Source: an uncultured Candidatus Saccharibacteria bacterium
Lineage (GTDB): Bacteria; Patescibacteriota; Minisyncoccia; Phycocordibacterales; PALSA-1337
Assembly (NCBI GenBank): GCA_964532285.1
Contig: CAZHHB010000004.1
Span: forward strand, 425 to 64,424
Direction of reading: 5' to 3'
DNA length: 64,000 nt
The notes under the pieces were generated by a model, which was given only the letters and a program-made list of their open reading frames with translations, was not told the origin of the DNA and made no database searches. How positions within the stretch are numbered: position 1 is the stretch's first letter; every line of letters starts with the position of its first letter. Positions 16,885-62,979 of this stretch are shown here, piece after piece. The position numbers were made by a program, and so were the translations under genes.

Positions 16885-17577
16885 ATGAAAATGGGCAAAT
16901 TAGCCCAAGGAGATAAGATTATGAACACAGAATTCATGATTGCAGAAGTAACGCCAGGGAAACTGAATGCGCTGGTAAAAAATATCATGCGTCAAACAGG
17001 CGAAACTGATCCCAATGAAGCTGTACGTCTCGTTAATTCGGGTGAGTGGGTAGTTTCGAAACCGACTCGCAACTGGCGCGAACAAGACGGCGTCATCTAC
17101 TTCTCGGTCACCAGCGATGGCACGACCGGCGAGGACTGGATCACCCGGCTCGAAAGCAAAGGCTTCCGCGTGGGTGACTACGCCAAGCAGGTGCTTCGTT
17201 CGCCGGACTTCAAGCCGACCAGTGGCATGACGACCGAAGTCGCCGTTCTCAAGGGCATGCTCTTCGAGGACAACGATCGGATCACGAAGAAGATTCGCGC
17301 CGAGGCAGACAAGCGCAAGCTGTCCAAGCCGAACGCCGAACTGGCCTGCCTCATCCGTGAGAAGTTCACGGACAAGGAGATTGAAGCGATGGGTCTGTGG
17401 TACATCGTTGCTATGCACGAGCCCATCAACGACTCCGATGGCGATCCGCGCCTCCTCCTCGCTTCCCGCGCTGACGATGGTCGGTGGCTGGATGCGTACT
17501 GCGGCAACCCTGGCCGCAGGTGGAGTCGTGGGCGCGGTTTTGCCTTCGTCGTCCCGCAAGTCAGTTCTCAACACTAA
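16885..17577 (+). CDS. DGR target protein (variable C-terminus, degenerate C-type-lectin/FGE-like ending 'GFAFVVPQ'); GC-rich
   Basis: The last ~45 codons form the VR. An SD 'AGGGGAA' precedes the ATG at 16885 (alternative ATG at 16921). No signal peptide is visible. The body of the gene is much more GC-rich than neighbouring genes. Confidence 0.7.
   Translation: MKMGKLAQGDKIMNTEFMIAEVTPGKLNALVKNIMRQTGETDPNEAVRLVNSGEWVVSKPTRNWREQDGVIYFSVTSDGTTGEDWITRLESKGFRVGDYAKQVLRSPDFKPTSGMTTEVAVLKGMLFEDNDRITKKIRAEADKRKLSKPNAELACLIREKFTDKEIEAMGLWYIVAMHEPINDSDGDPRLLLASRADDGRWLDAYCGNPGRRWSRGRGFAFVVPQVSSQH
17434..17560 (+). repeat. DGR variable repeat (VR)
   Basis: Aligns base-for-base with 17994-18120. All 18 mismatches are at positions where the TR has A. 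The resulting codon changes include AAC(N)->CGC/CTC/TCC/GAT/AGT and TAC(Y)->TGC. Confidence 0.9.
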
Positions 17578-17616
17578 GATCCTCGGGACTTTAGTCCCTT
17601 TGACCTTTGCACTTTG

Positions 17617-17645
17617 GCCCGGCATCACGCAAGTGATGTCCGGGC
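17617..17645 (+). promoter_or_regulatory. GC-rich hairpin about 55 nt downstream of the VR (candidate DGR target-recognition hairpin/cruciform)
   Basis: GCCCGGCATCAC-GCAA-GTGATGTCCGGGC, an 11-12-bp stem with one bulged T. Confidence 0.4.
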
Positions 17646-17993
17646 TAAATTTATGCTAGAATTTTATATGGTAGTAGGCGAATCATGCGGGCGGTTATGA
17701 CTTCCCGCGGCCGAATCCAGTATCCATGAGCTGAGAGCGAGAGCGGTCAGCCCAGTAGGCGAATCAGCAGATTCGCTCTTGGAGTAAATTCTACTGAATC
17801 AGGCTTCTCTCGGAGGGCTCATGTAGACACTTCATCCTTTGACAAGCTCGAGACGATCCTGAGCAAATCGAAGGATCAAAAAATGAAGCTACTTGGTGCA
17901 AGGTGCTATGGCATTATAATAATGCCAAATTCGATTCAACTCTGAGATCGCGTAAGCTTCAAAGGGTGGTGGCATGGAAGGCCTTATGCACAT

Positions 17994-18120
17994 TCCGATG
18001 GCGATCCGAACCTCCTCAACGCTAACCGCGATGACGATGGTCGGTGGCTGAATGCGTACTACGACAACCCTGACAACAGGTGGAATCGTGAGAACGGTTT
18101 TGCCTTCGTCGTCCCGCAAA
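17994..18120 (+). repeat. DGR template repeat (TR), invariant donor copy
   Basis: A non-coding remnant of the target C-terminus with no in-frame start. It carries adenines, including several AAC codons, at every site that differs in the VR. Confidence 0.9.
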
Positions 18121-18125
18121 TCTCT

Positions 18126-18512
18126 TCATTTCTTCCCCGCTTTTGTGGGGAAGTTTTGTTTATCTCGAGCTGTGTCCAAAGTTTTTGTAAGCTGGCCATT
18201 CCAACCTCCTAGATCTCTCCCAACCCCATCTAACTTTATAGAAAGTGCGATATACTTCTTGTCATCCAGTGATTTTGTTTCCCACAGGATCATTAGTAAT
18301 ATTTTCAGTGCATCTAGTTTCTTTATGGACAGGCGCACATACGGATGTTTCTCTTGTGGTGACAAGAAACCCGCTGCCGCGACAGATTCTATGATTTCTA
18401 CGAATAAAGTATCGATTCTGTATCCGAAAGAGTTCCTATTAAATTTCGGTAAATCTTTGTAAAAACCATGCCATAACAAATAAGTATCTTTGACCTTATT
18501 CAAAACAGGCAA
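18126..18512 (-). CDS. avd: Avd-like DGR accessory protein (four-helix-bundle / '23S rRNA intervening-sequence protein' family)
   Basis: 128 aa, basic and helical: 'KVKDTYLLWHGFYKDLPKFNRNSFGYRIDTLFVEIIESVAAAGF'. Size and family match Bordetella-phage bAvd. It is divergently oriented to the RT. Confidence 0.6.
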   Translation of the reverse strand: MPVLNKVKDTYLLWHGFYKDLPKFNRNSFGYRIDTLFVEIIESVAAAGFLSPQEKHPYVRLSIKKLDALKILLMILWETKSLDDKKYIALSIKLDGVGRDLGGWNGQLTKTLDTARDKQNFPTKAGKK

Positions 18513-18521
18513 AATTCGGTT

Positions 18522-18531
18522 GGGGGGGGGG
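18522..18531 (+). repeat. Homopolymeric G10 tract in the avd/RT divergent promoter region
   Basis: GGGGGGGGGG lies between the avd start (18512, minus strand) and the RT start (18542). Confidence 0.9.
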
Positions 18532-18541
18532 TCTTCATAGT

Positions 18542-19573
18542 TTGCGACGGATTCAGTTCAATCATACATACAATGATATCATTTCATTAGAAAATCTTCT
18601 TGAAGCATGGAAGGAATTCGTGAGAGGTAAGCGGAGTAAAAAGGATGTTCAGGAATTTGAACATGATCTGATGAGTAATATCATCTCACTTCATCGTGAT
18701 CTTGCGGCGAAAACCTATGAACATTCCGCATATGAATTCTTCAGAATTTCAGATCCCAAACCGCGCGATATTCATAAAGCGAAGGTAAGAGATAGGTTAT
18801 TACATCACGCCATTCATAGGAAATTGTACCCATTCTTCAATAAAACATTTATTGCGGATTCTTTCTCATGCCGACTTAAAAAGGGAACACATAGAGCCAT
18901 AGATAGATTTCGTACTTTTTCTTACAAGGTCTCAGAAAATCATACCAAGACAGTATGGGTACTCAAATGTGACATTAGAAAATTCTTTGCTTCAGTCGAT
19001 CAAGCCATACTTCTCGGTATTTTAAATAATTACATAAAAGACAAAGACATTCTCATGTTACTTTCGAAAGTCGTGGGCAGTTTTTATTCAACAGAGAAGG
19101 GTGTTGGTTTACCACTTGGTAATCTCACCTCTCAATTATTCGTGAATATTTACATGAATGAATTTGACCAGTTTATGAAACATAAAATAAAGGCAAGATA
19201 TTACATAAGATATGCGGATGATTTTGTTGTTTTTTCACAAGATAAGCCATGGCTTCACGGTATTATTTCGGAGATTACAGGTTTTCTTCTTAATAGACTG
19301 AAACTTCATCTCCATCCGAACAAGATATCTATAAGTACTATTGCTTCGGGTATTGATTATTTGGGTTGGGTCAATTTTCCAGATCACAGAGTCTTGAGGA
19401 CGAAGACCAAGAAGAGAATGTTTAGAAACATAAAAGCGAAAGGCGGAAAAGAAGAAACAGTTCAGTCGTATCTGGGTCTCATCAGCCATGGCAATAGCTG
19501 GAAGTTGCGACAGGAAATTATAAAATCACAGCCATTGACTTCAGTCGTATTTGGGTATATTATCCACATGTAA
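18542..19573 (+). CDS. DGR-type reverse transcriptase
   Basis: Motif 4 'LPLGNLTSQLFVNIY' is the DGR hallmark [I/L]GxxxSQ, essentially the Bordetella bRT 'IGNLTSQ'. Motif 5 is 'YIRYADDFVVF'. Also present is 'PKPRDIHKAKVRDRLLHHAIH'. TTG start at 18542, with an in-frame stop immediately upstream. Confidence 0.85.
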   Translation: MRRIQFNHTYNDIISLENLLEAWKEFVRGKRSKKDVQEFEHDLMSNIISLHRDLAAKTYEHSAYEFFRISDPKPRDIHKAKVRDRLLHHAIHRKLYPFFNKTFIADSFSCRLKKGTHRAIDRFRTFSYKVSENHTKTVWVLKCDIRKFFASVDQAILLGILNNYIKDKDILMLLSKVVGSFYSTEKGVGLPLGNLTSQLFVNIYMNEFDQFMKHKIKARYYIRYADDFVVFSQDKPWLHGIISEITGFLLNRLKLHLHPNKISISTIASGIDYLGWVNFPDHRVLRTKTKKRMFRNIKAKGGKEETVQSYLGLISHGNSWKLRQEIIKSQPLTSVVFGYIIHM

Positions 19574-25837: not shown

Positions 25838-25876
25838 GGGCCGTCGCAGCGTTTTCGCGCGACGGCCCTCTTTTTA
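25838..25876 (+). terminator. Strong rho-independent terminator in a 530-bp non-coding region, with no upstream plus-strand gene
   Basis: GGGCCGTCGCGC...GCGCGACGGCCC stem followed by TCTTTTT. Confidence 0.55.
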
Positions 25877-25917
25877 TACCCGAGATCCGATCTTGGTATA
25901 CCGAGATCCGATCTTGT
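25877..25917. repeat. Twin-palindrome intergenic repeat, copy 1 (CCGAGATCCGATCTTGG-TATA-CCGAGATCCGATCTTG)
   Basis: A member of a 6-copy family of two tandem 17-bp palindromes (CCRAGATCSGATCTYGG) joined by TATA. Confidence 0.85.
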
Positions 25918-33312: not shown

Positions 33313-36300
33313 TTGGACATGACTATTCAAAAGATGGAAGACGAAAATAAGAAAAAAGAAATACAGAAAAGTCAGAGTGCTCTCCGCGAAGAGCGTATTT
33401 TGGCATATTGGAATGAGAAAGATATTTTCAAGAAAACCTTAGAGAAACCTGCGCCTAAGGGAACTTACACATTCTATGATGGACCGCCTTTCGCTACGGG
33501 GACTCCGCATTATGGTCATATTCTAGCCAGTACGATCAAGGACGCTGTACCAAGGTTTTGGACTATGAGGGGTTACAAGATTCCACGCCGTTGGGGTTGG
33601 GATTGCCACGGTTTACCTGTAGAAAATCTCATAGAAAAAGAATTAAATTTGAAGACAAAGAAAGACATAATCAGTTATGGTATAGGAAAGTTCAATGACG
33701 GAGCACGTTCTGCTGTTATGCGTTATGCAGATGAATGGCGCAAGATTATCCCACGCCTCGGTCGTTTCGTAGATATGGATGACGATTATCGCACTATGGA
33801 TGCGAGCTATACCGAAACTGTTTGGTGGACATTCAAACGCCTATACGACAAAGGGTTGATTTATGAGGGGTTCAAGTCTATGAGTCTATGTCCGCGATGT
33901 GAGACTACATTGTCAAACTTTGAGGTTGCTCAGGGTTACAAAGATATAACTGATATTTCGGTTTATGTGAAGTTTAAAATTAAATCTCAAAAATTAAATC
34001 TCAAAAATGAGGCACAGGATTCATTGGGGAATGTTTATTTGATCGCCTGGACGACCACCCCATGGACCTTGCCGGGTAATGTGGCTTTGGCTGTAAATCC
34101 AGATATTGAATATTGCAAAGTGAAGATTACAGAGTCCGCAAGGGGAGACGGTGTTTCATCTGCGGGAGATTTGTTAATCGTCGCCAAGTCTAGATTGGTG
34201 GCTTTGAAAGATATCAAGTACGAGATTGTGGAGACTTTCAAAGGTTCCGACCTTGTGGGCGAATCTTACGAGTCATTATTTGATTATTACTCCAAAGACT
34301 CTGAGTTGAAGAATAGGGAAAATGGTTGGAGGGTGTACGGTGCAGATTTTGTTACGACCGAAGATGGAACTGGTGTGGTGCACATCGCTCCAGCTTTTGG
34401 TGCTGACGATTATGAAATGCTCACGAAACACGATTTGCCTTTTGTTCAACATGTGACGACAGGCGGCCATTTCAAAAAGGAAGTTACTGATTTTGCCGGT
34501 ATAGCGGTAAAGCCTAAGGCTGTTGAGGGAGAAAAGGATGCAAACCAAAAGGCCGATATCGAGATCATCAAATGGCTTGCTCATCGTGGTGGTCTGTTCG
34601 CAAAGGAGAAAATAGTTCATTCATATCCGCACTGTTGGCGCTGTGACACCCCACTTTTGAATTACGCCGCTTCCTCATGGTTTGTAAAAGTGACAGACCT
34701 GAAAGACAAACTGGTAGCTGAAAATAAAAAAGTGAAATGGACGCCGCCTGAGATTGGTGAAGGAAGATTTGGTAATTGGCTGTCGGGTGCGCGCGATTGG
34801 GCAATATCGCGTTCTAGATTCTGGGGAGCACCTATACCTGTCTGGAAAGAAGAGAAGACTGGAGTTTGCCATGTTCTCGGCTCAGTAGGGGATTTGAAAA
34901 AATTCAGTAAAGCCAAGAATACATATTATGTCATGCGTCATGGACAAGCAGACAATAATGTTAAAGGTATTTTGAGTAATGATATTGCTGATCCGTATCA
35001 TCTGACAGATGAAGGTCGGAAACAAGTGGCGGAGACGGCTGATAGATTGAAAGGGGTCAAGTTCGATGAAATATTCGTCTCACCTTTTGTCAGAACTAGA
35101 GAGACAGCTAATATTGTGAAAGAGAAACTTGGCTGGAAAGATGAAGATATGCATGTTGATGAGAGGATTCGTGAACTCGGATCAGGAGTTTTTGCTGGCA
35201 AGAGTGTGGAGGAATTTTCACAAGTTTTCCCATTCAGAGAGAGATTTACAAAATGTCCAGAAGGAGGTGAGACCTATGCCGATATCAAGAAGCGCATGGG
35301 AGATTTCCTCTACGATATGGAGAGTAAGTATTCGGGGAAGACCATCATGATAGTCAGTCATGAGACCTCGTCATACCTGCTTGTTGCGGCGGCTATGGGA
35401 CTGAATAGGGAACAAACACTTGATCTGCGTGGTGACTGTGATTTCATGGCCAATGCTGAATGTAGGAAGATAGAATTCTCACCCCTACCACACAACGCCG
35501 AATATGAATTAGATCTACATCGTCCTTATATTGATGATGTTGATTTGAGGACTCATCATGGAGACAAGTTGATGCGAGTTCAGGATGTCTTTGATTGTTG
35601 GTATGAATCAGGGTCCATGCCTTATGGTGAAGCTCATTATCCATTTGAGAATACTGAACAATTTGAACCGGCTTCTGGTCTATTTAAAAAATCTGTAGGT
35701 TTCCCAGCCGACTTCATTGCTGAAGGAGTAGATCAGACACGCGGGTGGTTCTATTCAATGATGGTTTTGGGTGTTGCTCTATTCGGCAAATCTCCATACA
35801 AGAGAGTTGTCGTCAACGGATTGGTCTTGGCTGAAGATGGTCAGAAGATGTCGAAATCAAAGAATAATTTCCCAGATCCGATCTTGATCTTTGATAAATA
35901 CGGCGTTGATGCACTCAGATATTATCTACTTTCATCACCACTTCTGAAGGCAGAAGATCTGAATTTCTCTGAGAAGGATGTAGATCTAATAAATAAAAAG
36001 ATCGTTATGCGCTTAGACAATGTCGTATCATTTTATAAATTATATGAGACTTCTCAAAAATCCGAGCCAAAGTCTCAGGTTTCTACAAATGTTCTGGATA
36101 TTTGGATCACAACAAGGTTGGATGAACTTGCAAGCGAAATAACCAAAGCGATGGAAAAATATGAGCTTGATAAGGCGACAAGGCCTATCGCTGATTTTGT
36201 GGATGATCTATCTACCTGGTACTTACGTCGTTCACGAGACAGGTTCAAAGGAGATGATTTGTCGGACAAGGAAAGTGCTTTGAATACCACCAGATATGTC

Positions 36301-36870
36301 CTGTTGGAAACAGCCAAGCTGATCGCTCCATTCATGCCTTTCTTGGCAGAAGATATATATAAGCAAGTGGGAGGGGCGAAGGAAAGTGTGCATTTGGAAG
36401 ATTGGCCAACGACGGAGAAAGTTGATGCCAATATTCTTGATGAAATGAGAGCTGTTCGAGCCATTGCTTCATCTGGTTTGGAGGCGCGCACCGTCGCCAA
36501 GATCAATATTCGTCAACCTCTAGCAACCATGGAGGTCAAGAGTAATAGGAAATTGGGAGAACAACTTGTAGAGCTTTTGAAAGATGAGGTCAATGTAAAG
36601 AGGGTGGTATTCGGTGCGGATATTGATAAAGAAGCGACCTTGGATATGAATATTACTCCGGAACTCAAAGAAGAAGGTCAGGTGCGTGAATTGTTACGCA
36701 CCATTCAAGATCTTCGCAAGGAGAAGGGGCTTAAGGTGGGGGATAAAGCGACACTTACTGTTACAGATGATATGAAAGATTTAGTTTCGCGCCATGAAAA
36801 AGAAATAATGAAGGCGACGGGATTGGAGCAGATAGAATATGGCGACAAAATGGAGATCGCGACGCCGTGA
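33313..36870 (+). CDS. ileS: Isoleucyl-tRNA synthetase (type 2) with an inserted histidine-phosphatase (PGAM-like) domain
   Basis: 'PHYGHILAS', 'WDCHGLPVE', 'WAISRSRFWGAPIP' and 'KMSKSKNN' are all present. Between 'PIPVWKEE' and 'DVFDCWYESGS' there are about 250 aa, versus about 60 in typical IleRS. The extra segment carries 'VMRHGQADN', 'VSPFVRTRETA' and 'IVSHETS'. Confidence 0.85.
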   Translation: MDMTIQKMEDENKKKEIQKSQSALREERILAYWNEKDIFKKTLEKPAPKGTYTFYDGPPFATGTPHYGHILASTIKDAVPRFWTMRGYKIPRRWGWDCHGLPVENLIEKELNLKTKKDIISYGIGKFNDGARSAVMRYADEWRKIIPRLGRFVDMDDDYRTMDASYTETVWWTFKRLYDKGLIYEGFKSMSLCPRCETTLSNFEVAQGYKDITDISVYVKFKIKSQKLNLKNEAQDSLGNVYLIAWTTTPWTLPGNVALAVNPDIEYCKVKITESARGDGVSSAGDLLIVAKSRLVALKDIKYEIVETFKGSDLVGESYESLFDYYSKDSELKNRENGWRVYGADFVTTEDGTGVVHIAPAFGADDYEMLTKHDLPFVQHVTTGGHFKKEVTDFAGIAVKPKAVEGEKDANQKADIEIIKWLAHRGGLFAKEKIVHSYPHCWRCDTPLLNYAASSWFVKVTDLKDKLVAENKKVKWTPPEIGEGRFGNWLSGARDWAISRSRFWGAPIPVWKEEKTGVCHVLGSVGDLKKFSKAKNTYYVMRHGQADNNVKGILSNDIADPYHLTDEGRKQVAETADRLKGVKFDEIFVSPFVRTRETANIVKEKLGWKDEDMHVDERIRELGSGVFAGKSVEEFSQVFPFRERFTKCPEGGETYADIKKRMGDFLYDMESKYSGKTIMIVSHETSSYLLVAAAMGLNREQTLDLRGDCDFMANAECRKIEFSPLPHNAEYELDLHRPYIDDVDLRTHHGDKLMRVQDVFDCWYESGSMPYGEAHYPFENTEQFEPASGLFKKSVGFPADFIAEGVDQTRGWFYSMMVLGVALFGKSPYKRVVVNGLVLAEDGQKMSKSKNNFPDPILIFDKYGVDALRYYLLSSPLLKAEDLNFSEKDVDLINKKIVMRLDNVVSFYKLYETSQKSEPKSQVSTNVLDIWITTRLDELASEITKAMEKYELDKATRPIADFVDDLSTWYLRRSRDRFKGDDLSDKESALNTTRYVLLETAKLIAPFMPFLAEDIYKQVGGAKESVHLEDWPTTEKVDANILDEMRAVRAIASSGLEARTVAKINIRQPLATMEVKSNRKLGEQLVELLKDEVNVKRVVFGADIDKEATLDMNITPELKEEGQVRELLRTIQDLRKEKGLKVGDKATLTVTDDMKDLVSRHEKEIMKATGLEQIEYGDKMEIATP

Positions 36871-43475: not shown

Positions 43476-43482
43476 AGTTTGC

Positions 43483-43520
43483 CCAAGATCCGATCTCGGT
43501 ATACCAAGATCGGATCTTGG
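43483..43520. repeat. Twin-palindrome intergenic repeat, copy 2
   Basis: CCAAGATCCGATCTCGG-TATA-CCAAGATCGGATCTTGG, 8 nt after the stop of the upstream gene. Confidence 0.85.
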
Positions 43521-43566
43521 ATAACTGTTTCCCATTTCTTCTCCTATGAGGTAAACTAGGTTTTAC

Positions 43567-45180
43567 ATGCCCAAGTCAACGACCAAAACCACAAAGACCA
43601 CCCTACTTCGCCCCTCGATAAAAACTCGGGGCTTCGAAGGGCAAGAAATTAGAGAGGTCAAGAAACCTTTCTATATAACAACTACCTTGCCGTATGTGAA
43701 TGCTGAACCACATATTGGTTTCGCCATGGAACTCATTCGTGCAGACATCATCGCTAGGAACAAAGCCCTGCAGGGACATGAAGTATTTTTGAATACCGGA
43801 ACGGACGAACACGGCACCAAGATATATCGCAAGGCGAAAGAGCAACACATGGAGACTCAGGCTTATGTGGACGATTTGGTTTTGAAATTCAAAGAACTAA
43901 TCCCACTTTTGGGTATTCGCACGGACACCAACTTCATTCGGACAACGGACCCACATCATATCGCGGCCGCTCAGGAATTCTGGAAAAATGTGGACAAAAA
44001 CGGACTTATTTATAAGAAAAATTACAAAATCAAGTATTGTGTCGGTTGTGAACTGGAAAAGACCGAGTCAGAATTGGTAGAAGGGAAATGCTCACTTCAT
44101 CCTCTTCAAGAATTAGAATTGATAGAAGAAGAAAATTATTTCTTCCGTTTCAGCCTATTCCAAAAACAACTCATGGATCTCTATGAGAAAGTCCCAGATT
44201 TCGTGGTGCCAAACTCTCGTTTGAATGAAATAAGGGCTTTCGTAGAGCGTGGTCTAGAAGATTTCAGTGTGTCACGATTGGCTACAAAAATGCCTTGGGG
44301 CATACCAGTACCAGGTGATGACAAGCATGTGATGTATGTTTGGTTTGATGCTTTGGTGAATTATGTTTCGGCAATTGGGTGGCCTGAAAAAGAAGTACCC
44401 TCCTCCACATCTCCTTCCAGTCGAGCTTCGAAGGGCAAGGAAAGTGAGGTGTTAAATTTTCAGAAGTGGTGGGTGGAAAGTGGGGGGGTTATTCAATATT
44501 GCGGCAAAGACAATCTCCGACAACAAGCCGCAATGTGGCAAGCCATGCTCATGGCGGCAAAACTCCCGCCTTCCAGGAAGATTATTATAGATGGTTTCAT
44601 TACAGGAGAAGGTGGTATCAAGATGTCCAAATCTCTAGGCAATACTGTCAGTCCTGTTGGTATAGTAAAGGATTATGGAACAGATGCTTTGCGTTATTAT
44701 GTTACTAGAGAACTAGCGCCTTTCGAAGATAGTGCATTTACTCCAGAGAAATTCAAAGAAGCTTACAACGCCCATCTGGCTAATGGCCTGGGCAATCTTG
44801 TTTCTAGAGTTATGAAAATGGCTGAGACAAATGATATAAAGTTTGATAATAAGGTTTTGGAGAAATTTGTTGATTCGGAAGAATTCAAATCAATTGACGC
44901 GAGATATAACGAAGGCTTCGAGTCATATGATCTGCAGAAAGTTGGTAATGTTGTTTGGGAGCTTATTTCAAGTACTGACAAGATAGTTCAAGAACGCGAG
45001 CCATTCAAAAAAATAAAAACAAACAAGACAGAAGCAGAATCGGACATCAGGGAACTAATCGTCCGTGTATACATGATCGGTTCATTACTGGCTCCTGTTT
45101 TGCCAGAAACAGGGGCGAAGATCATCACATTGATTGAGGGCAACAAAATGCCTGAGGCTCCGTTGTTTGCAAGGAAGTAA
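43567..45180 (+). CDS. metG: Methionyl-tRNA synthetase with ~30-aa N-terminal extension
   Basis: 'YITTTLPYVNAEPHIGFAMELIRADIIARN' and 'KMSKSLGN'. The N-terminal extension '[27 protein letters not shown]' contains a 48-nt element shared with recA. Confidence 0.85.
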   Translation: MPKSTTKTTKTTLLRPSIKTRGFEGQEIREVKKPFYITTTLPYVNAEPHIGFAMELIRADIIARNKALQGHEVFLNTGTDEHGTKIYRKAKEQHMETQAYVDDLVLKFKELIPLLGIRTDTNFIRTTDPHHIAAAQEFWKNVDKNGLIYKKNYKIKYCVGCELEKTESELVEGKCSLHPLQELELIEEENYFFRFSLFQKQLMDLYEKVPDFVVPNSRLNEIRAFVERGLEDFSVSRLATKMPWGIPVPGDDKHVMYVWFDALVNYVSAIGWPEKEVPSSTSPSSRASKGKESEVLNFQKWWVESGGVIQYCGKDNLRQQAAMWQAMLMAAKLPPSRKIIIDGFITGEGGIKMSKSLGNTVSPVGIVKDYGTDALRYYVTRELAPFEDSAFTPEKFKEAYNAHLANGLGNLVSRVMKMAETNDIKFDNKVLEKFVDSEEFKSIDARYNEGFESYDLQKVGNVVWELISSTDKIVQEREPFKKIKTNKTEAESDIRELIVRVYMIGSLLAPVLPETGAKIITLIEGNKMPEAPLFARK

Positions 45181-45188
45181 TTTGCGAC

Positions 45189-45230
45189 TACCGAGATCGG
45201 ATCTCGGTATACCAAGATCGGATCTCGGTG
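45189..45230. repeat. Twin-palindrome intergenic repeat, copy 3
   Basis: TACCGAGATCGGATCTCGG-TATA-CCAAGATCGGATCTCGG, starting 9 nt after the metG stop. Confidence 0.85.
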
Positions 45231-45237
45231 TAAAATT

Positions 45238-46056
45238 ATGAAATACATAGATATACATGGACATGTTAATTTCCCCGAATACGACGGTGACAGGGAAGCG
45301 ACGCTCAAAAGAGCCACGGATGCTGGCGTGTCAATGATCACTGTAGGTACTGATCTTGAAACTTCTAGATCGGCGGTTGAATTGGCGAATAAGTTTGAGA
45401 ATATGTATGCCACGGTTGGAACCCACCCTACTTCCAAAGAGGTTATAGATATTGAAGCTTACAATAATCTTGCAAATGATCCGAAAGTTGTTGCTATCGG
45501 CGAGTGCGGTCTGGATTACTTTAGGTCAGATGAAGGAACTGCCGATGAACAGCGCAAGGTGTTTGAAATGATGATTGATCTGGCAAATAGGGTAAATAAG
45601 CCTTTGATGTTGCATTTGCGAAATCCTGTTGTCAGAGGTCCGACCTCTACACCGACCTCTGCATACAAAGACGCCTACACTATTCTCAAGGAGCGTTCAA
45701 AAGTCTTGGGTAATCTCCATTTCTTTGCTGGGAGCATAGAGGAGGCGAAGCCGTTCTTAGATTTAGGATATTACTTTTCTTTTACAGGAGCCATAACATT
45801 TGGCAATAACTATGAGGAAATAATTAAATACATTCCCATTAATAGGATAATGTCGGAGACTGACTGTCCATTTGTTGCGCCTATTCCATATAGAGGTAAA
45901 AGGAATGAACCAGCTTATGTCATTGAAGTGGTCAAAACTATTGCTAAGATTAAAGGCCAATCTGAGGAAGTGGTCAGGGAACAGGTGTTGAAGAATGCTG
46001 AAACATTTCTACCAAGATCCGATCTCGGTATACCAAGATCCGATCTTGGAACTTGA
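45238..46056 (+). CDS. tatD: TatD-family metal-dependent DNase; C-terminal tail encoded by a palindromic repeat
   Basis: 'IDIHGHVNFPEY' and a 'DLGYYFSFTGAITF' region. The last 14 codons ('LPRSDLGIPRSDLGT') are read through repeat copy 4. Confidence 0.8.
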   Translation: MKYIDIHGHVNFPEYDGDREATLKRATDAGVSMITVGTDLETSRSAVELANKFENMYATVGTHPTSKEVIDIEAYNNLANDPKVVAIGECGLDYFRSDEGTADEQRKVFEMMIDLANRVNKPLMLHLRNPVVRGPTSTPTSAYKDAYTILKERSKVLGNLHFFAGSIEEAKPFLDLGYYFSFTGAITFGNNYEEIIKYIPINRIMSETDCPFVAPIPYRGKRNEPAYVIEVVKTIAKIKGQSEEVVREQVLKNAETFLPRSDLGIPRSDLGT

Positions 46057-46106
46057 GATTTTATCAGGAATTTATCTCTTTTTTATCAGGAATTTATCTT
46101 TGTTTG
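46011..46106. repeat. Composite repeat: twin palindrome (copy 4) plus tandem 'TTATCAGGAATTTATCT' x2 module
   Basis: ACCAAGATCCGATCTCGGTATACCAAGATCCGATCTTGG, then TTATCAGGAATTTATCTCTTTTTTATCAGGAATTTATCTTTGTTTG. The same ~95-bp composite occurs at 56835-56920. Confidence 0.85.
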
Positions 46107-46290
46107 CTAGAGTTCTCTTAGATCTTTGAAATTTCATCTATGATTATTTTGTTCATAACCCTTGCGTTACGGGTCATTTATGTGGTAGCCTCATATTAAT
46201 TATAAGTAATCGCGGTAAGTCCCAAGAGTCTTGAATAATAAGACTATGGGTCCCGAAGGAGAAATCCGAGGGTCACTGACCGCAAAAAAT

Positions 46291-47546: not shown

Positions 47547-47560
47547 AAGTAGAGAATGCA

Positions 47561-47729
47561 AAAAGGAACAGTTGTAATTTTTAGTTACCTGCGAGACTCG
47601 CTCCGTGAAATTGCTAGGTAAAAGGCTCAGGAATTGTAAACAATTCCAACGACATTCGCCTTTTACCAAGCAATTTCTACTGCGCTCAGACAAGGTTCTC
47701 GGCAACTAAAAATTACAATTGTTCCTTTT
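47561..47729. repeat. Copy A of a ~110-bp conserved core (47590-47700) nested in the loop of the rpsR/efp bidirectional terminator palindrome
   Basis: Outer arms GGAACAGTTGTAATTTTTAGTTACC / GGCAACTAAAAATTACAATTGTTCC, with T-runs on both strands. The core 'CCTGCGAGACTCGCTCCGTGAAATTGCTAGGTAAAAGGCTCAGGAATTGTAAACAATTCCAACGACATTCGCCTTTTACCAAGCAATTTCTACTGCGCTCAGACAAGGTTCTCGGC' is about 96% identical to 53137-53245. Confidence 0.8.
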
Positions 47730-47731
47730 TG

Positions 47732-49295: not shown

Positions 49296-50417
49296 TTATT
49301 GCTCTTTGAACTTCACTCTTATCTCACTCAATATCTGATCTTTGATTTTCGGGTTCTCTTTGAGGAATTGTCTGGTGGCGTCATATCCACGGCCGAGTTT
49401 CACTTCTCCGAAAGCATAGGATGAGCCGCTCTTTTGGAGTAAGCCGTATTTCTCACCCAAAGCGATGATCTCGCCTTCTTGCGATATTCCCTCGTTGTAC
49501 ATGAGGTCAAATTCTGTCTGTTTGAATGGTGCGGCGACTTTATTCTTCACAACCTTGACTCGTACACGACCGCCCATGATCTCTTCGCCTTTTTTGATCT
49601 GAGCAATGCGTCGGATGTCCAATCGTACAGAAGAGTAGAATTTCAAAGCCTTACCACCTGGTGTCGTCTCTGGATTGCCGAACATAACTCCGATTTGCAT
49701 GCGGATCTGATTGATGAAGATAACAGTAGTCTTTGACTTTGCGACTATAGCTGTCAATTTGCGTAGAGCTTGAGACATTAATCGAGCTTGAGTTCCGACA
49801 TGGAATGCTCCCATATCGCCTTCAATCTCTGCACGCGGAGTCAGGGCAGCTACGGAATCAATAACCACAACATCCATTTTGTTTGTGCGGATGAGGCTGT
49901 CTACAATCTCCAAGGCTTGTTCGCCTGTGTCTGGCTGTGATATCAGAAGTTCATCTATCTTCACACCCAAGCGTTTGCTGTATTCTGGATCCATAGCGTG
50001 TTCTGCATCTATATAAGCACAAACTCCACCAAGCTTCTGTGCCTCAGCTACAATGTGCAAGGCTAGGGTTGTTTTGCCGGATGATTCTGGCCCGAACACC
50101 TCTATAATGCGTCCACGGGGAACCCCACCAATACCGAGGGCCCAATCTAGGCCGAGAGAACCTGTGGGTATGGCGTTGACGTTGACCTTTGGCTTCTCAT
50201 CCAACTTCATGATGGAATCTTCACCAAACTTTGTGCGAATGGCGTCTAGGGCGTCTTGGATGCCAGCACCAGCACTTTTTTTGTTCTTATCTTCGTGACC
50301 AGATTCGACTACTGATTCTACAGCTTCCTTATTTTCTGTTTTGCTTTCTTCTTGCCCTTCGGAGCCCCGAGTTTTTATCGAGGGGCGAAGTAGGGTTTGT
50401 TTTTTCTTTATAGACAT
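49296..50417 (-). CDS. recA: Recombinase RecA with ~45-aa N-terminal extension
   Basis: Walker A 'GPESSGKTT', L1/L2 loops and '[23 protein letters not shown]'. The extension '[23 protein letters not shown]...' shares a 48-nt element with metG. Confidence 0.9.
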
Positions 50418-53079: not shown

Positions 53080-53114
53080 GGTGTAATGATAACATAAAAA
53101 TGTGCGAACCCTAA

Positions 53115-53267
53115 CAAACAGGTTTCCTTGCAAGCCTGCGAGACTCGCTCCGTGAAATTGCTAGGTAAAAGGCTCAGGAATTATAAATAATTCCAACGAC
53201 GTTCGCCTTTTACCAAGCAATTTCTACTGCGCTCAAACAAGTTCTCGGCTTGCAAGGAAACCTGTTT
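53115..53267. repeat. Copy B of the ~110-bp conserved core (53137-53245) nested in an unrelated perfect 22-bp palindrome
   Basis: Outer arms CAAACAGGTTTCCTTGCAAGCC / GGCTTGCAAGGAAACCTGTTTG. The core differs from copy A at about 5 positions. It sits in the divergent region between ftsK and the 53441 gene. Confidence 0.8.
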
Positions 53268-53440
53268 GTTGGAGTTCGACCAGGAAAGGCCCCTCACTTC
53301 GTTCGGGACGCCCACTTTAAAAAAAGTGGGCGCTTGCAACTTACTTTTTAAAGACTATAATGGGCATGTCTCATAAGAGGGGAAATTGATTTTTTATCAA
53401 GGACAAAGATAAAATCTATAAAAGACATACATTTACGATA

Positions 53441-56665: not shown

Positions 56666-56834
56666 TTGTGTTGGGGGAAATAAGGATAAACTTCGAGTCG
56701 CCTTGCTGTGTTATACTAATTGCAACATGGTTAACCCCTTCGACCGTAGTTTCTTCAAATTCTTCTTCGGATTCATTTGTATTCTATTTGTAAGTTTTGT
56801 AATTATCTATGTTGCTGGACGCTACTGATTCTAT

Positions 56835-56920
56835 CCAAGATCCGATCTTGGTATACCGAGATCCGATCTTGGACTTTATCAGGAATTTATCTCTTTTTTA
56901 TCAGGAATTTATCTTTGTTT
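56835..56920. repeat. Composite repeat: twin palindrome (copy 5) plus tandem 'TTATCAGGAATTTATCT' x2 module
   Basis: CCAAGATCCGATCTTGGTATACCGAGATCCGATCTTGG, then ACTTTATCAGGAATTTATCTCTTTTTTATCAGGAATTTATCTTTGTTTG. The downstream module is identical to 46061-46106. Confidence 0.85.
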
Positions 56921-56986
56921 GATACGATTCAGACATTATTTACGCTGAGCTTTGTCGAAGCATCGGCTTAATGTCGTATCAAAATT

Positions 56987-61084: not shown

Positions 61085-61714
61085 ATGGATACACTCACGG
61101 CATTATTTGAGAGCCCTGCAAAAGTAAAGCTTCTTCGCTTATTCCTTTTCAATGCATCCACAGCTTTTCTTGTAAAAGAACTTTTTGACAGAGTGAAATG
61201 TCCGTTACCAGCCGTGAAGAGGGAATTAAATGTTTTGATCCGAGCCGGTATTATCAAGAGGAAAGATGTTTCCAAAGAAATTCAAGTTGGGCGAGGGAAG
61301 AAGATAATTACGAAAAAGTTAAGTGGCTCGGGTTATGTTCTAAATGATAAGTTTGCATATCTTGAACCCCTCAAGAACTTCCTGACGGTTACAAGTTTAC
61401 AGGCGGATGAATCATTGGCGAAACGCTTTACCAATGCAGGCAAGATCAAGCTTTTCATCGCGGCCGGAGTTTTCATCCAAAATTGGGATTCCAGGGTAGA
61501 TCTACTCATTGTTGGCGATGAACTCAATTTGCCTAGGATAGAGTCCGTGATTACTTCTATAGAATCAGAGATAGGCAAAGAGATAGCTTATTCAGCTTTT
61601 GAGACACAAGACTTTGAATATCGTTACGGTATACACGACAGATTGGTTAGGGATATTCTTGATTATCAACATATTACTTTATTGGATAGGCTAGGAGTTG
61701 AGGGTAATCAATAG
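61085..61714 (+). CDS. Hypothetical protein with N-terminal winged-helix-like segment
   Basis: 'PAKVKLLRLFLFNASTAFLVKELFDRVKCPLPAVKRELNVLIRAGIIKRK'. No catalytic motifs. Confidence 0.4.
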   Translation: MDTLTALFESPAKVKLLRLFLFNASTAFLVKELFDRVKCPLPAVKRELNVLIRAGIIKRKDVSKEIQVGRGKKIITKKLSGSGYVLNDKFAYLEPLKNFLTVTSLQADESLAKRFTNAGKIKLFIAAGVFIQNWDSRVDLLIVGDELNLPRIESVITSIESEIGKEIAYSAFETQDFEYRYGIHDRLVRDILDYQHITLLDRLGVEGNQ

Positions 61715-61716
61715 AT

Positions 61717-61760
61717 ACCAAGATCAGATCTAGGTATACCGAGATCGGATCTTGGTATAA
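61717..61760. repeat. Twin-palindrome intergenic repeat, copy 6 (slightly degenerate)
   Basis: ACCAAGATCAGATCTAGG-TATA-CCGAGATCGGATCTTGG, 3 nt after the stop at 61714. Confidence 0.8.
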
Positions 61761-62548: not shown

Positions 62549-62577
62549 AAAATCCCCCTTTGAAAGGGGGATTTTTG
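62549..62577 (+). terminator. Rho-independent terminator
   Basis: AAAATCCCCCTTTGAAAGGGGGATTTTTG. Confidence 0.7.
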
Positions 62578-62581
62578 ATAG

Positions 62582-62617
62582 CAAGGTCGGACCTAGGGAC
62601 TCTTAGGTCCGACCTTG
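62582..62617. repeat. Inverted pair of AGGTCGGACCT-type palindromes (CAAGGTCGGACCTA-GGGACTCT-TAGGTCCGACCTTG)
   Basis: The same 11-nt palindrome AGGTCGGACCT is also at 33302-33312 and 48389-48399. Confidence 0.8.
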
Positions 62618-62672: not shown

Positions 62673-62979
62673 TATCTTACAGAATGATAATCATGTTAAA
62701 CCACTCAAAGACGCGGCCATAGCCACACTCCTTATGGGGCGTAGCTTGTAGCCGCTGAATAAAGCGGTTTTTCATTTCCAGGAGGAAAGCAGTTTGAAAA
62801 TTTCATACCAAAAGAAAGTAAAGAGTTCGTTTTTATTGAGTAAATAAAAATTGAACGGCTTATTCATTTTTCGGGTCGAAAGATGGGTAGGTGTGGATGT
62901 AGGTTTATAGCCCTACGACGCTCTGCTTTGCAGAGCTAAGAAGGGCAAGAACACACAGCGGTGTGTGGATTTCCTAGTA

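Follow-up and report, generated by a model that had tools for sequence, protein, structure and literature searches.

A 48-nucleotide palindromic repeat, probably of the REP/RPE kind, lies in frame in metG and recA of a Patescibacteria genome

Introduction

Ogata et al. reportedly described, in 2000, the Rickettsia palindromic elements (RPEs) RPE-1 to RPE-8. Repetitive extragenic palindromic sequences (REPs), as treated by Di Nocera, De Gregorio and Rocco (2013; PMC3733652), have stems that are parted from self-complementary loops by unpaired di- or trinucleotides, form dimers and in some cases donate stop codons; intragenic copies encode 10-30 residues, often N-terminal and often in repair genes, DNA ligase or tRNA synthetases, and many N-terminal REPs of other species are probably not coding. 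The Rickettsia elements RPE-4 and RPE-6 are equated there with CGTC REPs, and in-frame palindromic repeats in essential genes are already known from Rickettsia and some Proteobacteria (cf. PMC3733652). Here we analyze a 64-kb stretch of contig CAZHHB010000004.1 from an uncultured member of the Patescibacteria (the whole stretch is referred to below as the window), in which a 48-nt palindromic element lies in frame near the 5′ ends of both metG, encoding methionyl-tRNA synthetase (MetRS), and recA. We consider it probable that this element is one member of a REP/RPE-type family of short palindromes that colonizes Patescibacteria genomes, and the best reading of its copies is that of a selfish repeat, tolerated and translated in disordered tails and loops. 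A literature search found the sequence in no paper, and found REP-like elements undescribed in Patescibacteria and the candidate phyla radiation (CPR).

With respect to the RPEs, the element is likewise a short palindrome that lies in frame in essential genes and is missing from their orthologues; it occupies permissive sites outside the folded core as well as intergenic regions and RNA genes, and has no adjacent transposase. It differs in length (48 nt, against approximately 100-150 nt for RPE-1), in residing in another phylum, and in its modular build of arms and an inner hairpin, the latter being common to unrelated phyla. With the intragenic GTAG/CGTC REPs it shares a stem-loop with unpaired spacers, inverted dimers, stop codon donation and intragenic copies, many of them N-terminal, in hosts that again include repair genes, DNA ligase and tRNA synthetases. 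REPs are, however, mostly extragenic and near 3′ ends, whereas three of the four family members in the window are intragenic; copies from high-GC soil bacteria and one at the 3′ end of rpmF do fit the REP pattern. Moreover, REPs are accompanied by a REP-associated Y1 tyrosine transposase (RAYT) whose gene they flank, whereas no RAYT was seen in the window and the core of the element is strictly co-oriented with transcription.

Two further systems invite comparison. [quoted passage not shown] MITEs carry the terminal inverted repeats of a parent insertion sequence (IS) together with target-site duplications, neither of which was found for the element. Translational bypass inserts, known from the gap of T4 gene 60 and the "byps" of Magnusiomyces mitochondria, are hairpin inserts of approximately 50 nt within coding sequence that need not be in frame and usually carry stop codons. 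Unlike these, the six coding copies of the element stay open and are in effect a multiple of three, so they would be read rather than skipped. We would say that the element appears to work like an RPE or an intragenic REP, a likening by behavior that assigns it to no named family.

Results

The copies in metG and recA (A and B, Table 1) are identical at 47 of 48 positions, the sole mismatch being a T versus C at element position 35 when each copy is read on its own strand. This difference is non-synonymous (F/S) and falls at an unpaired position of the predicted fold. Identity ends exactly at the 48-nt borders, beyond which the flanks are otherwise unrelated; the pair constitutes the longest inverted repeat of the window, and the 48-mer found no match in 100 dinucleotide-preserving shuffles. 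Such near-identity within unrelated flanks indicates that the two copies descend, as DNA, from a recent common source. Both copies are read in the same frame, giving a 16-residue block that ends in (F/S)EGQE. The original prediction had reported a 48-mer shared by the two genes with a single A/G difference, the T/C mismatch as seen on the plus strand, and lying in frame in each. Both statements were borne out, the frame being that of the longest open reading frame (ORF) in either gene.

The same prediction had proposed a GCCCC...GGGGC hairpin, which RNA folding reproduces as a 5-bp inner stem closing a 13-nt loop. This 23-nt inner hairpin, GCCCCTCGATAAAAACTCGGGGC, is referred to below as the core. 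It is joined through a 3x3 internal loop to a predicted 6-bp outer stem, CCCTAC/GAAGGG, with one A.A mismatch in the window copies, so that the whole is a short imperfect palindrome able to form a stem-loop. The predicted stability is only modestly better than that of shuffled sequences (z = -1.5 to -1.8), and the consensus fold over five copies amounts to -17.9 kcal/mol. Inspection by eye revealed no target-site duplication at any copy, and the flanks of copies A-D and loci L001-L003 have no direct repeats in common, the 6-bp outer helix alone being present in inverted form.

Table 1. Coordinates of the repeat copies, their host genes and other features of the window.
Feature	Position	Strand	Description
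metG	43567-45180	+	MetRS, 537 aa; host of copies A and C
recA	49296-50417	-	RecA, 373 aa; host of copy B
Copy A	43600-43647	+	48-nt palindromic repeat ACCCTACTTCGCCCCTCGATAAAAACTCGGGGCTTCGAAGGGCAAGAA; in frame in metG, codons 12-27
Copy A inner hairpin	43610-43632	+	23 nt; 5-bp stem, 13-nt loop
Copy B	50349-50396	-	as copy A except for one T>C change (F>S); in frame in recA, codons 8-23
Copy B inner hairpin	50364-50386	-	same 23-nt core
Copy C	44397-44442	+	decayed member inside metG; arms ACCCTCCTCC...GCTTCGAAGGGCAAGGAA
Copy D	62911-62951	+	arms CCCTACGACG ... CTAAGAAGGGCAAGAA; other inner hairpin, CTCTGC-TTT-GCAGAG
Diversity-generating retroelement, variable repeat	17434-17567		3′ end of ORF 16885-17577
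Diversity-generating retroelement, template repeat	17994-18127		followed by small ORF 18052-18462
Diversity-generating retroelement, reverse transcriptase	18542-19573		RVT_1, E = 1e-22
Second palindromic family	25853-25916, 43477-43523, 45185-45234, 46006-46050, 56829-56879, 61711-61760, 62575-62617		tandem hairpin pairs

The closest relatives of the window MetRS and RecA are annotated as Paceibacterota, Parcubacteria or Patescibacteria. The 16-residue block is missing from all MetRS orthologues examined (119, at 62-72% identity) and likewise from all those of RecA (120, at 77-94% identity), and the peptide encoded by the core was not found in these 239 proteins in any of its five open frames. 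Copies in metG (at two sites, A and C) and recA are therefore inserts that keep the frame open and are missing from orthologues. MetRS orthologues carry 3-25 residues ahead of PFYITTTLPYVN, several of them rich in K/T like the window protein (for example MPKTSTKSTTKKPFYITT in P0120 and MPKSSPKPFYITT in P0017), and N-termini of the MPK..K..KKPFYITT type are found in relatives including P0120, P0017 and P0081. All 120 RecA orthologues possess a K/E/S-rich N-terminal tail of 30-80 residues that begins MSIKKK, MSLKKNK or MPIKKK, the M(S/P)IKKK start being kept in more than 100. The original prediction had described the N-terminal extensions as missing from the orthologues of other bacteria, which for RecA applies to the 16-residue block (0/120) and not to the tail (120/120).

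Further support for the annotated starts comes from relative L014, whose locus is syntenic with the window (ftsK, recA, efp, rpsR, ssb, rpsF, tatD and metG in the same order) and whose metG, at 488 aa, has neither insert A nor insert C. The context of the metG start codon, actagg(t/c)t(t/c)tacATG, is kept between the two (actaggctctacATG in L014, actaggttttacATG in the window), and neither metG nor recA has an ATG, GTG or TTG in the stretch that separates the element from the conserved domains. Because the upstream context and first residues are conserved in relatives that have no element, and no downstream start is available, we conclude from these comparisons that the annotated ATGs are the genuine start codons, which places the element within coding sequence. 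On the same grounds we infer that the insert is translated. An inversion between the two inverted copies was also considered and rejected, as gene order and orientation match L014.

A separate observation concerns the RecA tail. Approximately nine RecA orthologues (P0133, P0149, P0150, P0159, P0168, P0182, P0193, P0197 and P0220) carry PASAESAKHGKGGVP immediately after M.IKKK, at the position occupied by copy B. At the DNA level in L014 (10019-10064) this reads CTTC-TGCTGAATCAGC-GAAG...GGGAAAGG, a small palindrome whose layout loosely resembles that of the window element. No repeat of the PASAESAKHGKGGVP block was found within 21 kb of L014, and it is at most a candidate relative of the element.

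Two diverged members of the family, copies C and D, bring the number in the window to four, of which three are intragenic and one lies in a ribosomal RNA leader. Copy C keeps the left arm ACCCTCCTCC and 17 of the 18 bases of the right arm GCTTCGAAGGGCAAGGAA around a decayed middle; it is read in a different frame from copy A as PSSTSPSSRASKGKE, residues 278-292 of MetRS, and this insert was not found in the MetRS orthologues. Copy D is co-oriented with the 23S rRNA gene and located 24 nt upstream of its 5′ end (start 62975). The arms thus occur with other inner hairpins, both in copy D and in the second element of Saccharibacteria locus L003, where two elements are arranged as an inverted doublet in the manner of REP dimers. 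Conversely, the core is bordered at some loci by CPR-type arms and at others by high-GC flanks, and at still others it lacks arms altogether. This exchange of partners indicates that arms and core behave as separate modules. No near-variant of the core (up to five edits) was found in the 178 kb of sequence examined.

The site of copy C is also a place where other inserts accumulate. The MetRS loop between GWP(D/E) and F.KWW (equivalent to window positions 44390-44450) is an insertion hot spot: at least 10 orthologues (P0006, P0019, P0029, P0036, P0040, P0064, P0069, P0074, P0078 and P0085) carry unrelated inserts of 10-45 aa there. Some are mirror-like, such as SEYLVPS...VLGTRNSE in P0064, which suggests other translated palindromes. 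The insert of P0069 was considered as a relative of the element and rejected, its peptide being similar (LLRSP...RGSEG) and its DNA only weakly so.

Beyond the window, exact matches to the 23-nt core were found at five loci in three metagenome-assembled genomes (MAGs), one genome having been scanned per species, and at eight loci in Joint Genome Institute (JGI) metagenomes. These searches demanded an exact match, so the degree of core conservation is not measurable from them. In a Saccharibacteria MAG the core lies in frame inside SecA and a ComF-like gene, read in each case as PLDKNSG, and the same MAG has an intergenic core between nusA and a pilB-like gene, in inverted pairing with an arm-family element that bears a third inner hairpin. 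Approximately 24 kb sampled from this MAG held three exact cores and at least one variant, and three core matches were counted in total in the Saccharibacteria species-representative MAG. A copy in LigA, set in frame in the HhH-BRCT linker, is again read as PLDKNSG, whereas at the 3′ end of rpmF the TAA of the core loop supplies the stop codon (...APR-stop). In a Paceibacterota MAG the core stands 18 nt upstream of tmRNA, and soil contigs of 63-68% GC have it in no fewer than four distinct spacers between genes, adjoining nuoA, nuoC, an RDD-family gene and a LamB/YcsF gene. The core, including its A-rich loop, is accordingly identical in genomes of 41-68% GC whose flanking sequences are very different. 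The possibility that it is a fragment of a universal RNA was rejected, as no match was found in E. coli genomes.

Two of these settings have structural features of their own. At locus L012 (9900-9990, minus strand) the LigA core is succeeded by a perfect inverted copy, 14 nt in length, of the coding sequence immediately downstream (AGTCAGCACGAAAA / TTTTCGTGCTGACT), and the two form a strong hairpin (DNA fold z = -5.5) whose loop, TTTGAGGGACAAG, is a motif also seen 3′ of the core in soil and CPR versions. In the 63-68% GC soil loci L006, L007-L009, L011 and L013 the core is embedded in an intergenic multi-hairpin repeat of approximately 65 nt, GGGGCCCC-core-GTCCCGAGCGAAGTCGAGGGACGC..., several copies of which end in CGCGACTAA a few bases ahead of a start codon (nuoA, zinc-ribbon/RDD gene). 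On the opposite strand, this soil repeat has an alternative fold that resembles an intrinsic terminator, CTCGGG-ACGC-CCCGAG followed by TTTTTAT.

Orientation of the core follows a simple rule: at all 12 loci that could be assessed, it is co-oriented with its host gene or flanking transcript. GC skew is positive throughout the window, with no reversal of sign from the metG copy to that in recA. Given this constant skew, the two copies are opposite to one another relative to replication, and their orientation follows transcription. Replication-strand bias was therefore rejected, for the window, as the cause of the rule.

These distributions bear on whether the shared unit is DNA or peptide. Since the same DNA recurs in other frames, other genes, other genomes and at untranslated sites, a peptide tag is excluded, and the element is, as judged from its sequence contexts, a repeat at the DNA level. 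Consistent with this, a two-sequence profile of the 30-aa region matched none of 1.84 billion representative proteins. The sites themselves are predicted to be tolerant ones. An AlphaFold2 model of MetRS (52 sequences) has a mean predicted local distance difference test (pLDDT) score of 88 and falls below 50 only at residues 1-26 and 278-294, segments that overlap the element-encoded residues 12-27 and 278-292 almost exactly. The model thus places both insertions at surface or disordered sites, and the LigA copy occupies an interdomain linker. The copies in SecA, the ComF-like protein and LigA also keep the frame open, as judged from the reading frames of these genes, so that all six coding copies do so. 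No internal copy is read in the TAA-containing forward frame, which is met only where it provides the stop of rpmF. Open frames throughout, with the TAA frame used solely for termination, are the pattern expected from selective filtering of insertions.

Other elements of the window

A complete diversity-generating retroelement occupies 16885-19573, and in its 134-nt repeat every mismatch falls at an adenine of the template copy. The ORF at 33313-36870 encodes an isoleucyl-tRNA synthetase-like protein of 1185 aa with an inserted His_Phos_1 domain (residues 539-707, E = 2e-33), located in the middle of the class I catalytic/editing region.

Two other repeat families were noted. A 107-nt repeat, itself a long imperfect hairpin, is present in two copies that are 96% identical (47559-47731 and 53105-53278), one between rpsR and efp and the other at the 5′ end of ftsK, each clamped by a different, locus-specific 31-bp inverted repeat. 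It has no Rfam match, and it combines a constant inner module with a variable outer stem. A second palindromic family (Table 1) comprises tandem pairs of CC(A/G)AGATC(C/G)GATCT(C/T)GG hairpins at gene 3′ ends. Its members flank metG on both sides, one forms the C-terminus of the TatD ORF (...PRSDLGIPRSDLGT), and a 53-nt repeat common to two of the copies comes after each of them (46057-46109 and 56872-56924).

Discussion

The reading that we favor, and hold to be probable, treats the 48-mer as a selfish, presumably mobile palindromic repeat. In its members an exchangeable inner hairpin would be joined, through a 3x3 internal loop, to a 6-bp outer helix (CCCTWC/GAAGGG), with CAAG(A/C)AA as the 3′ tail. 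New copies would be made at the DNA level without duplication of the target site, probably either through an enzyme that is encoded elsewhere and transposes the element in trans, or through ectopic recombination or gene conversion. Copies would survive only where they do no harm, namely in intergenic spacers, stable-RNA leaders and tolerant positions of genes, and within a gene survival would require a length that is a multiple of three, a stop-free frame and a site in a surface loop or a disordered tail. The copies in metG and recA would have been inserted behind the true start codons, into N-terminal tails rich in lysine, with the consequence that 16 extra hydrophilic residues, dispensable for function and probably neutral, are transcribed and translated. 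The small mobile in-frame insertion envisaged in the original prediction fits this account, the block being absent from every orthologue examined while the same DNA occurs in other genes, genomes, frames and spacers.

Several points weigh against this interpretation. A purely selfish element leaves unexplained both the co-orientation with transcription at 12 of 12 loci and the identity of the core between CPR genomes and soil contigs of 63-68% GC. The window, as surveyed with Pfam over approximately 50 ORFs, encodes no transposase (RAYT/Y1 or other), and its 64 kb hold only two near-identical and two diverged copies. The element also has no unpaired terminal GTAG/CGTC tag of the kind that defines tagged REPs: the reverse complement of its left arm, GTAGGG, lies inside the outer helix, and the bases between the inner and outer stems are CTAC in the Saccharibacteria copies and CTTC/CTCC in those of the window. 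Finally, translation of the insert is deduced rather than observed, and the nearest MetRS orthologue available for a presence/absence comparison is 72% identical.

Of the alternatives, we regard as unlikely the proposal that the hairpin is a selected RNA-level element, for instance an RNase processing or stability determinant or a site for a conserved RNA-binding protein, that is active in any transcript that carries it. At the 5′ ends of metG and recA such a hairpin would tune translation or mRNA decay. The orientation rule, which in the window tracks transcription over replication, is what this proposal would lead one to expect, and the positions of family members in the leaders of tmRNA and 23S rRNA also accord with it. 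The identity of the 23-nt core and its A-rich loop across genomes of 41-68% GC could be added, but an exact-match search in itself makes every core found identical. Rfam returned no match for the element in the window at the gathering threshold and none for five other loci at E<=1, folding yields weak z-scores, and there are no compensatory pairs among five CPR copies. Moreover, the contexts are mixed (mid-gene, 3′ end, 5′ leader and spacer), and absence of the block from all 239 host-gene orthologues indicates that it is not needed for expression of metG or recA. The shared translational control element offered in the original prediction therefore keeps a place among the less likely explanations while gaining no specific support, given the Rfam result, the lack of covariation and the location of most copies far from start codons.

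It is improbable, in our estimation, that the core is a DNA recognition site, whether an IS200/IS605- or RAYT-like end hairpin moved between phyla, a recombination site or an uptake-type signal, with the arms serving as lineage-specific carriers. The mixing of core and arms is consistent with a separately recognized module, the absence of target-site duplications is expected of Y1/HUH-type transposition, and the hosts include genes of uptake and recombination (recA, ligA, comF-like, and a site upstream of a pilB-like gene). However, no transposase adjoins any of the 15 copies, the neighbors in the other loci being housekeeping genes, and none was found in the window. Two exact cores in 64 kb are far too sparse for an uptake sequence, the density of which is approximately one per kb, and orientation in the window is independent of the replication strand. 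Mobile genetic elements also failed to yield the core: there was no match in 2.9 million viral contigs, and searches with the 48-mer in phage records and with the high-GC version in plasmids gave chance-level partial matches only. A degenerate arm pattern produced 89 matches in the viral contigs, which is about the chance level by a rough estimate; the top-ranked ones looked like ordinary coding sequence, with one GC-rich hairpin in a high-GC phage.

A more speculative proposal, and likewise an improbable one, would make GCCCCTCGATAAAAACTCGGGGC an independent module that is recognized in an orientation-specific manner, as RNA or single-stranded DNA, by a factor common to several phyla. Such a module would move or be kept across Patescibacteria and high-GC soil bacteria, nest in lineage-specific palindromic carriers, and enter in the transcribed sense through a transcription-coupled or RNA-mediated route. 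If true, it would represent an undescribed class of cross-phylum mini-element and not an ordinary species-specific REP. Core identity, co-orientation and the inverted copy in LigA keep two of the alternatives above in play, namely an RNA-level function and a single-stranded DNA module that is recognized as such.

We attach very little probability to the idea that MetRS and RecA have in common a functional peptide module at the N-terminus, copied between them by gene conversion, or to the common peptide tag of the original prediction. The two copies do share a frame, a kind of position and a basic, hydrophilic peptide, but the same DNA is read in other frames, including in metG itself, appears as PLDKNSG or APR-stop in other genes and is untranslated elsewhere; the sole nucleotide difference changes the residue, the profile search and the orthologues are empty, and the segment is predicted to be disordered, so that this explanation is already largely refuted. 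It is equally hard to credit that both genes start downstream at non-canonical codons, leaving the repeat as a shared motif of the 5′ untranslated region, because, although an ATT codon (43648) preceded by GAAGGG adjoins the metG copy and many N-terminal REPs elsewhere are probably non-coding (PMC3733652), the recA copy has no start-like codon after it, no ATG/GTG/TTG intervenes between either copy and the conserved domains, and relatives devoid of the element keep the upstream ATGs with their MPK.../MSIKKK beginnings as well as the sequence context ahead of metG, which contradicts the refuting scenario set out with the original prediction.

In terms of the biology of these organisms, palindromic repeats of this kind appear to supply tiny CPR genomes steadily with new disordered protein segments; throughout the lineage, insertions visibly accumulate in the MetRS loop and in the RecA tail. 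For annotation, the N-terminal extensions are best treated as real coding sequence and should not be taken to signal a new function. Should the identity of the inner hairpin between phyla and the sense-strand rule be upheld, they would point to a shared recognition system or to an unusual route of insertion.

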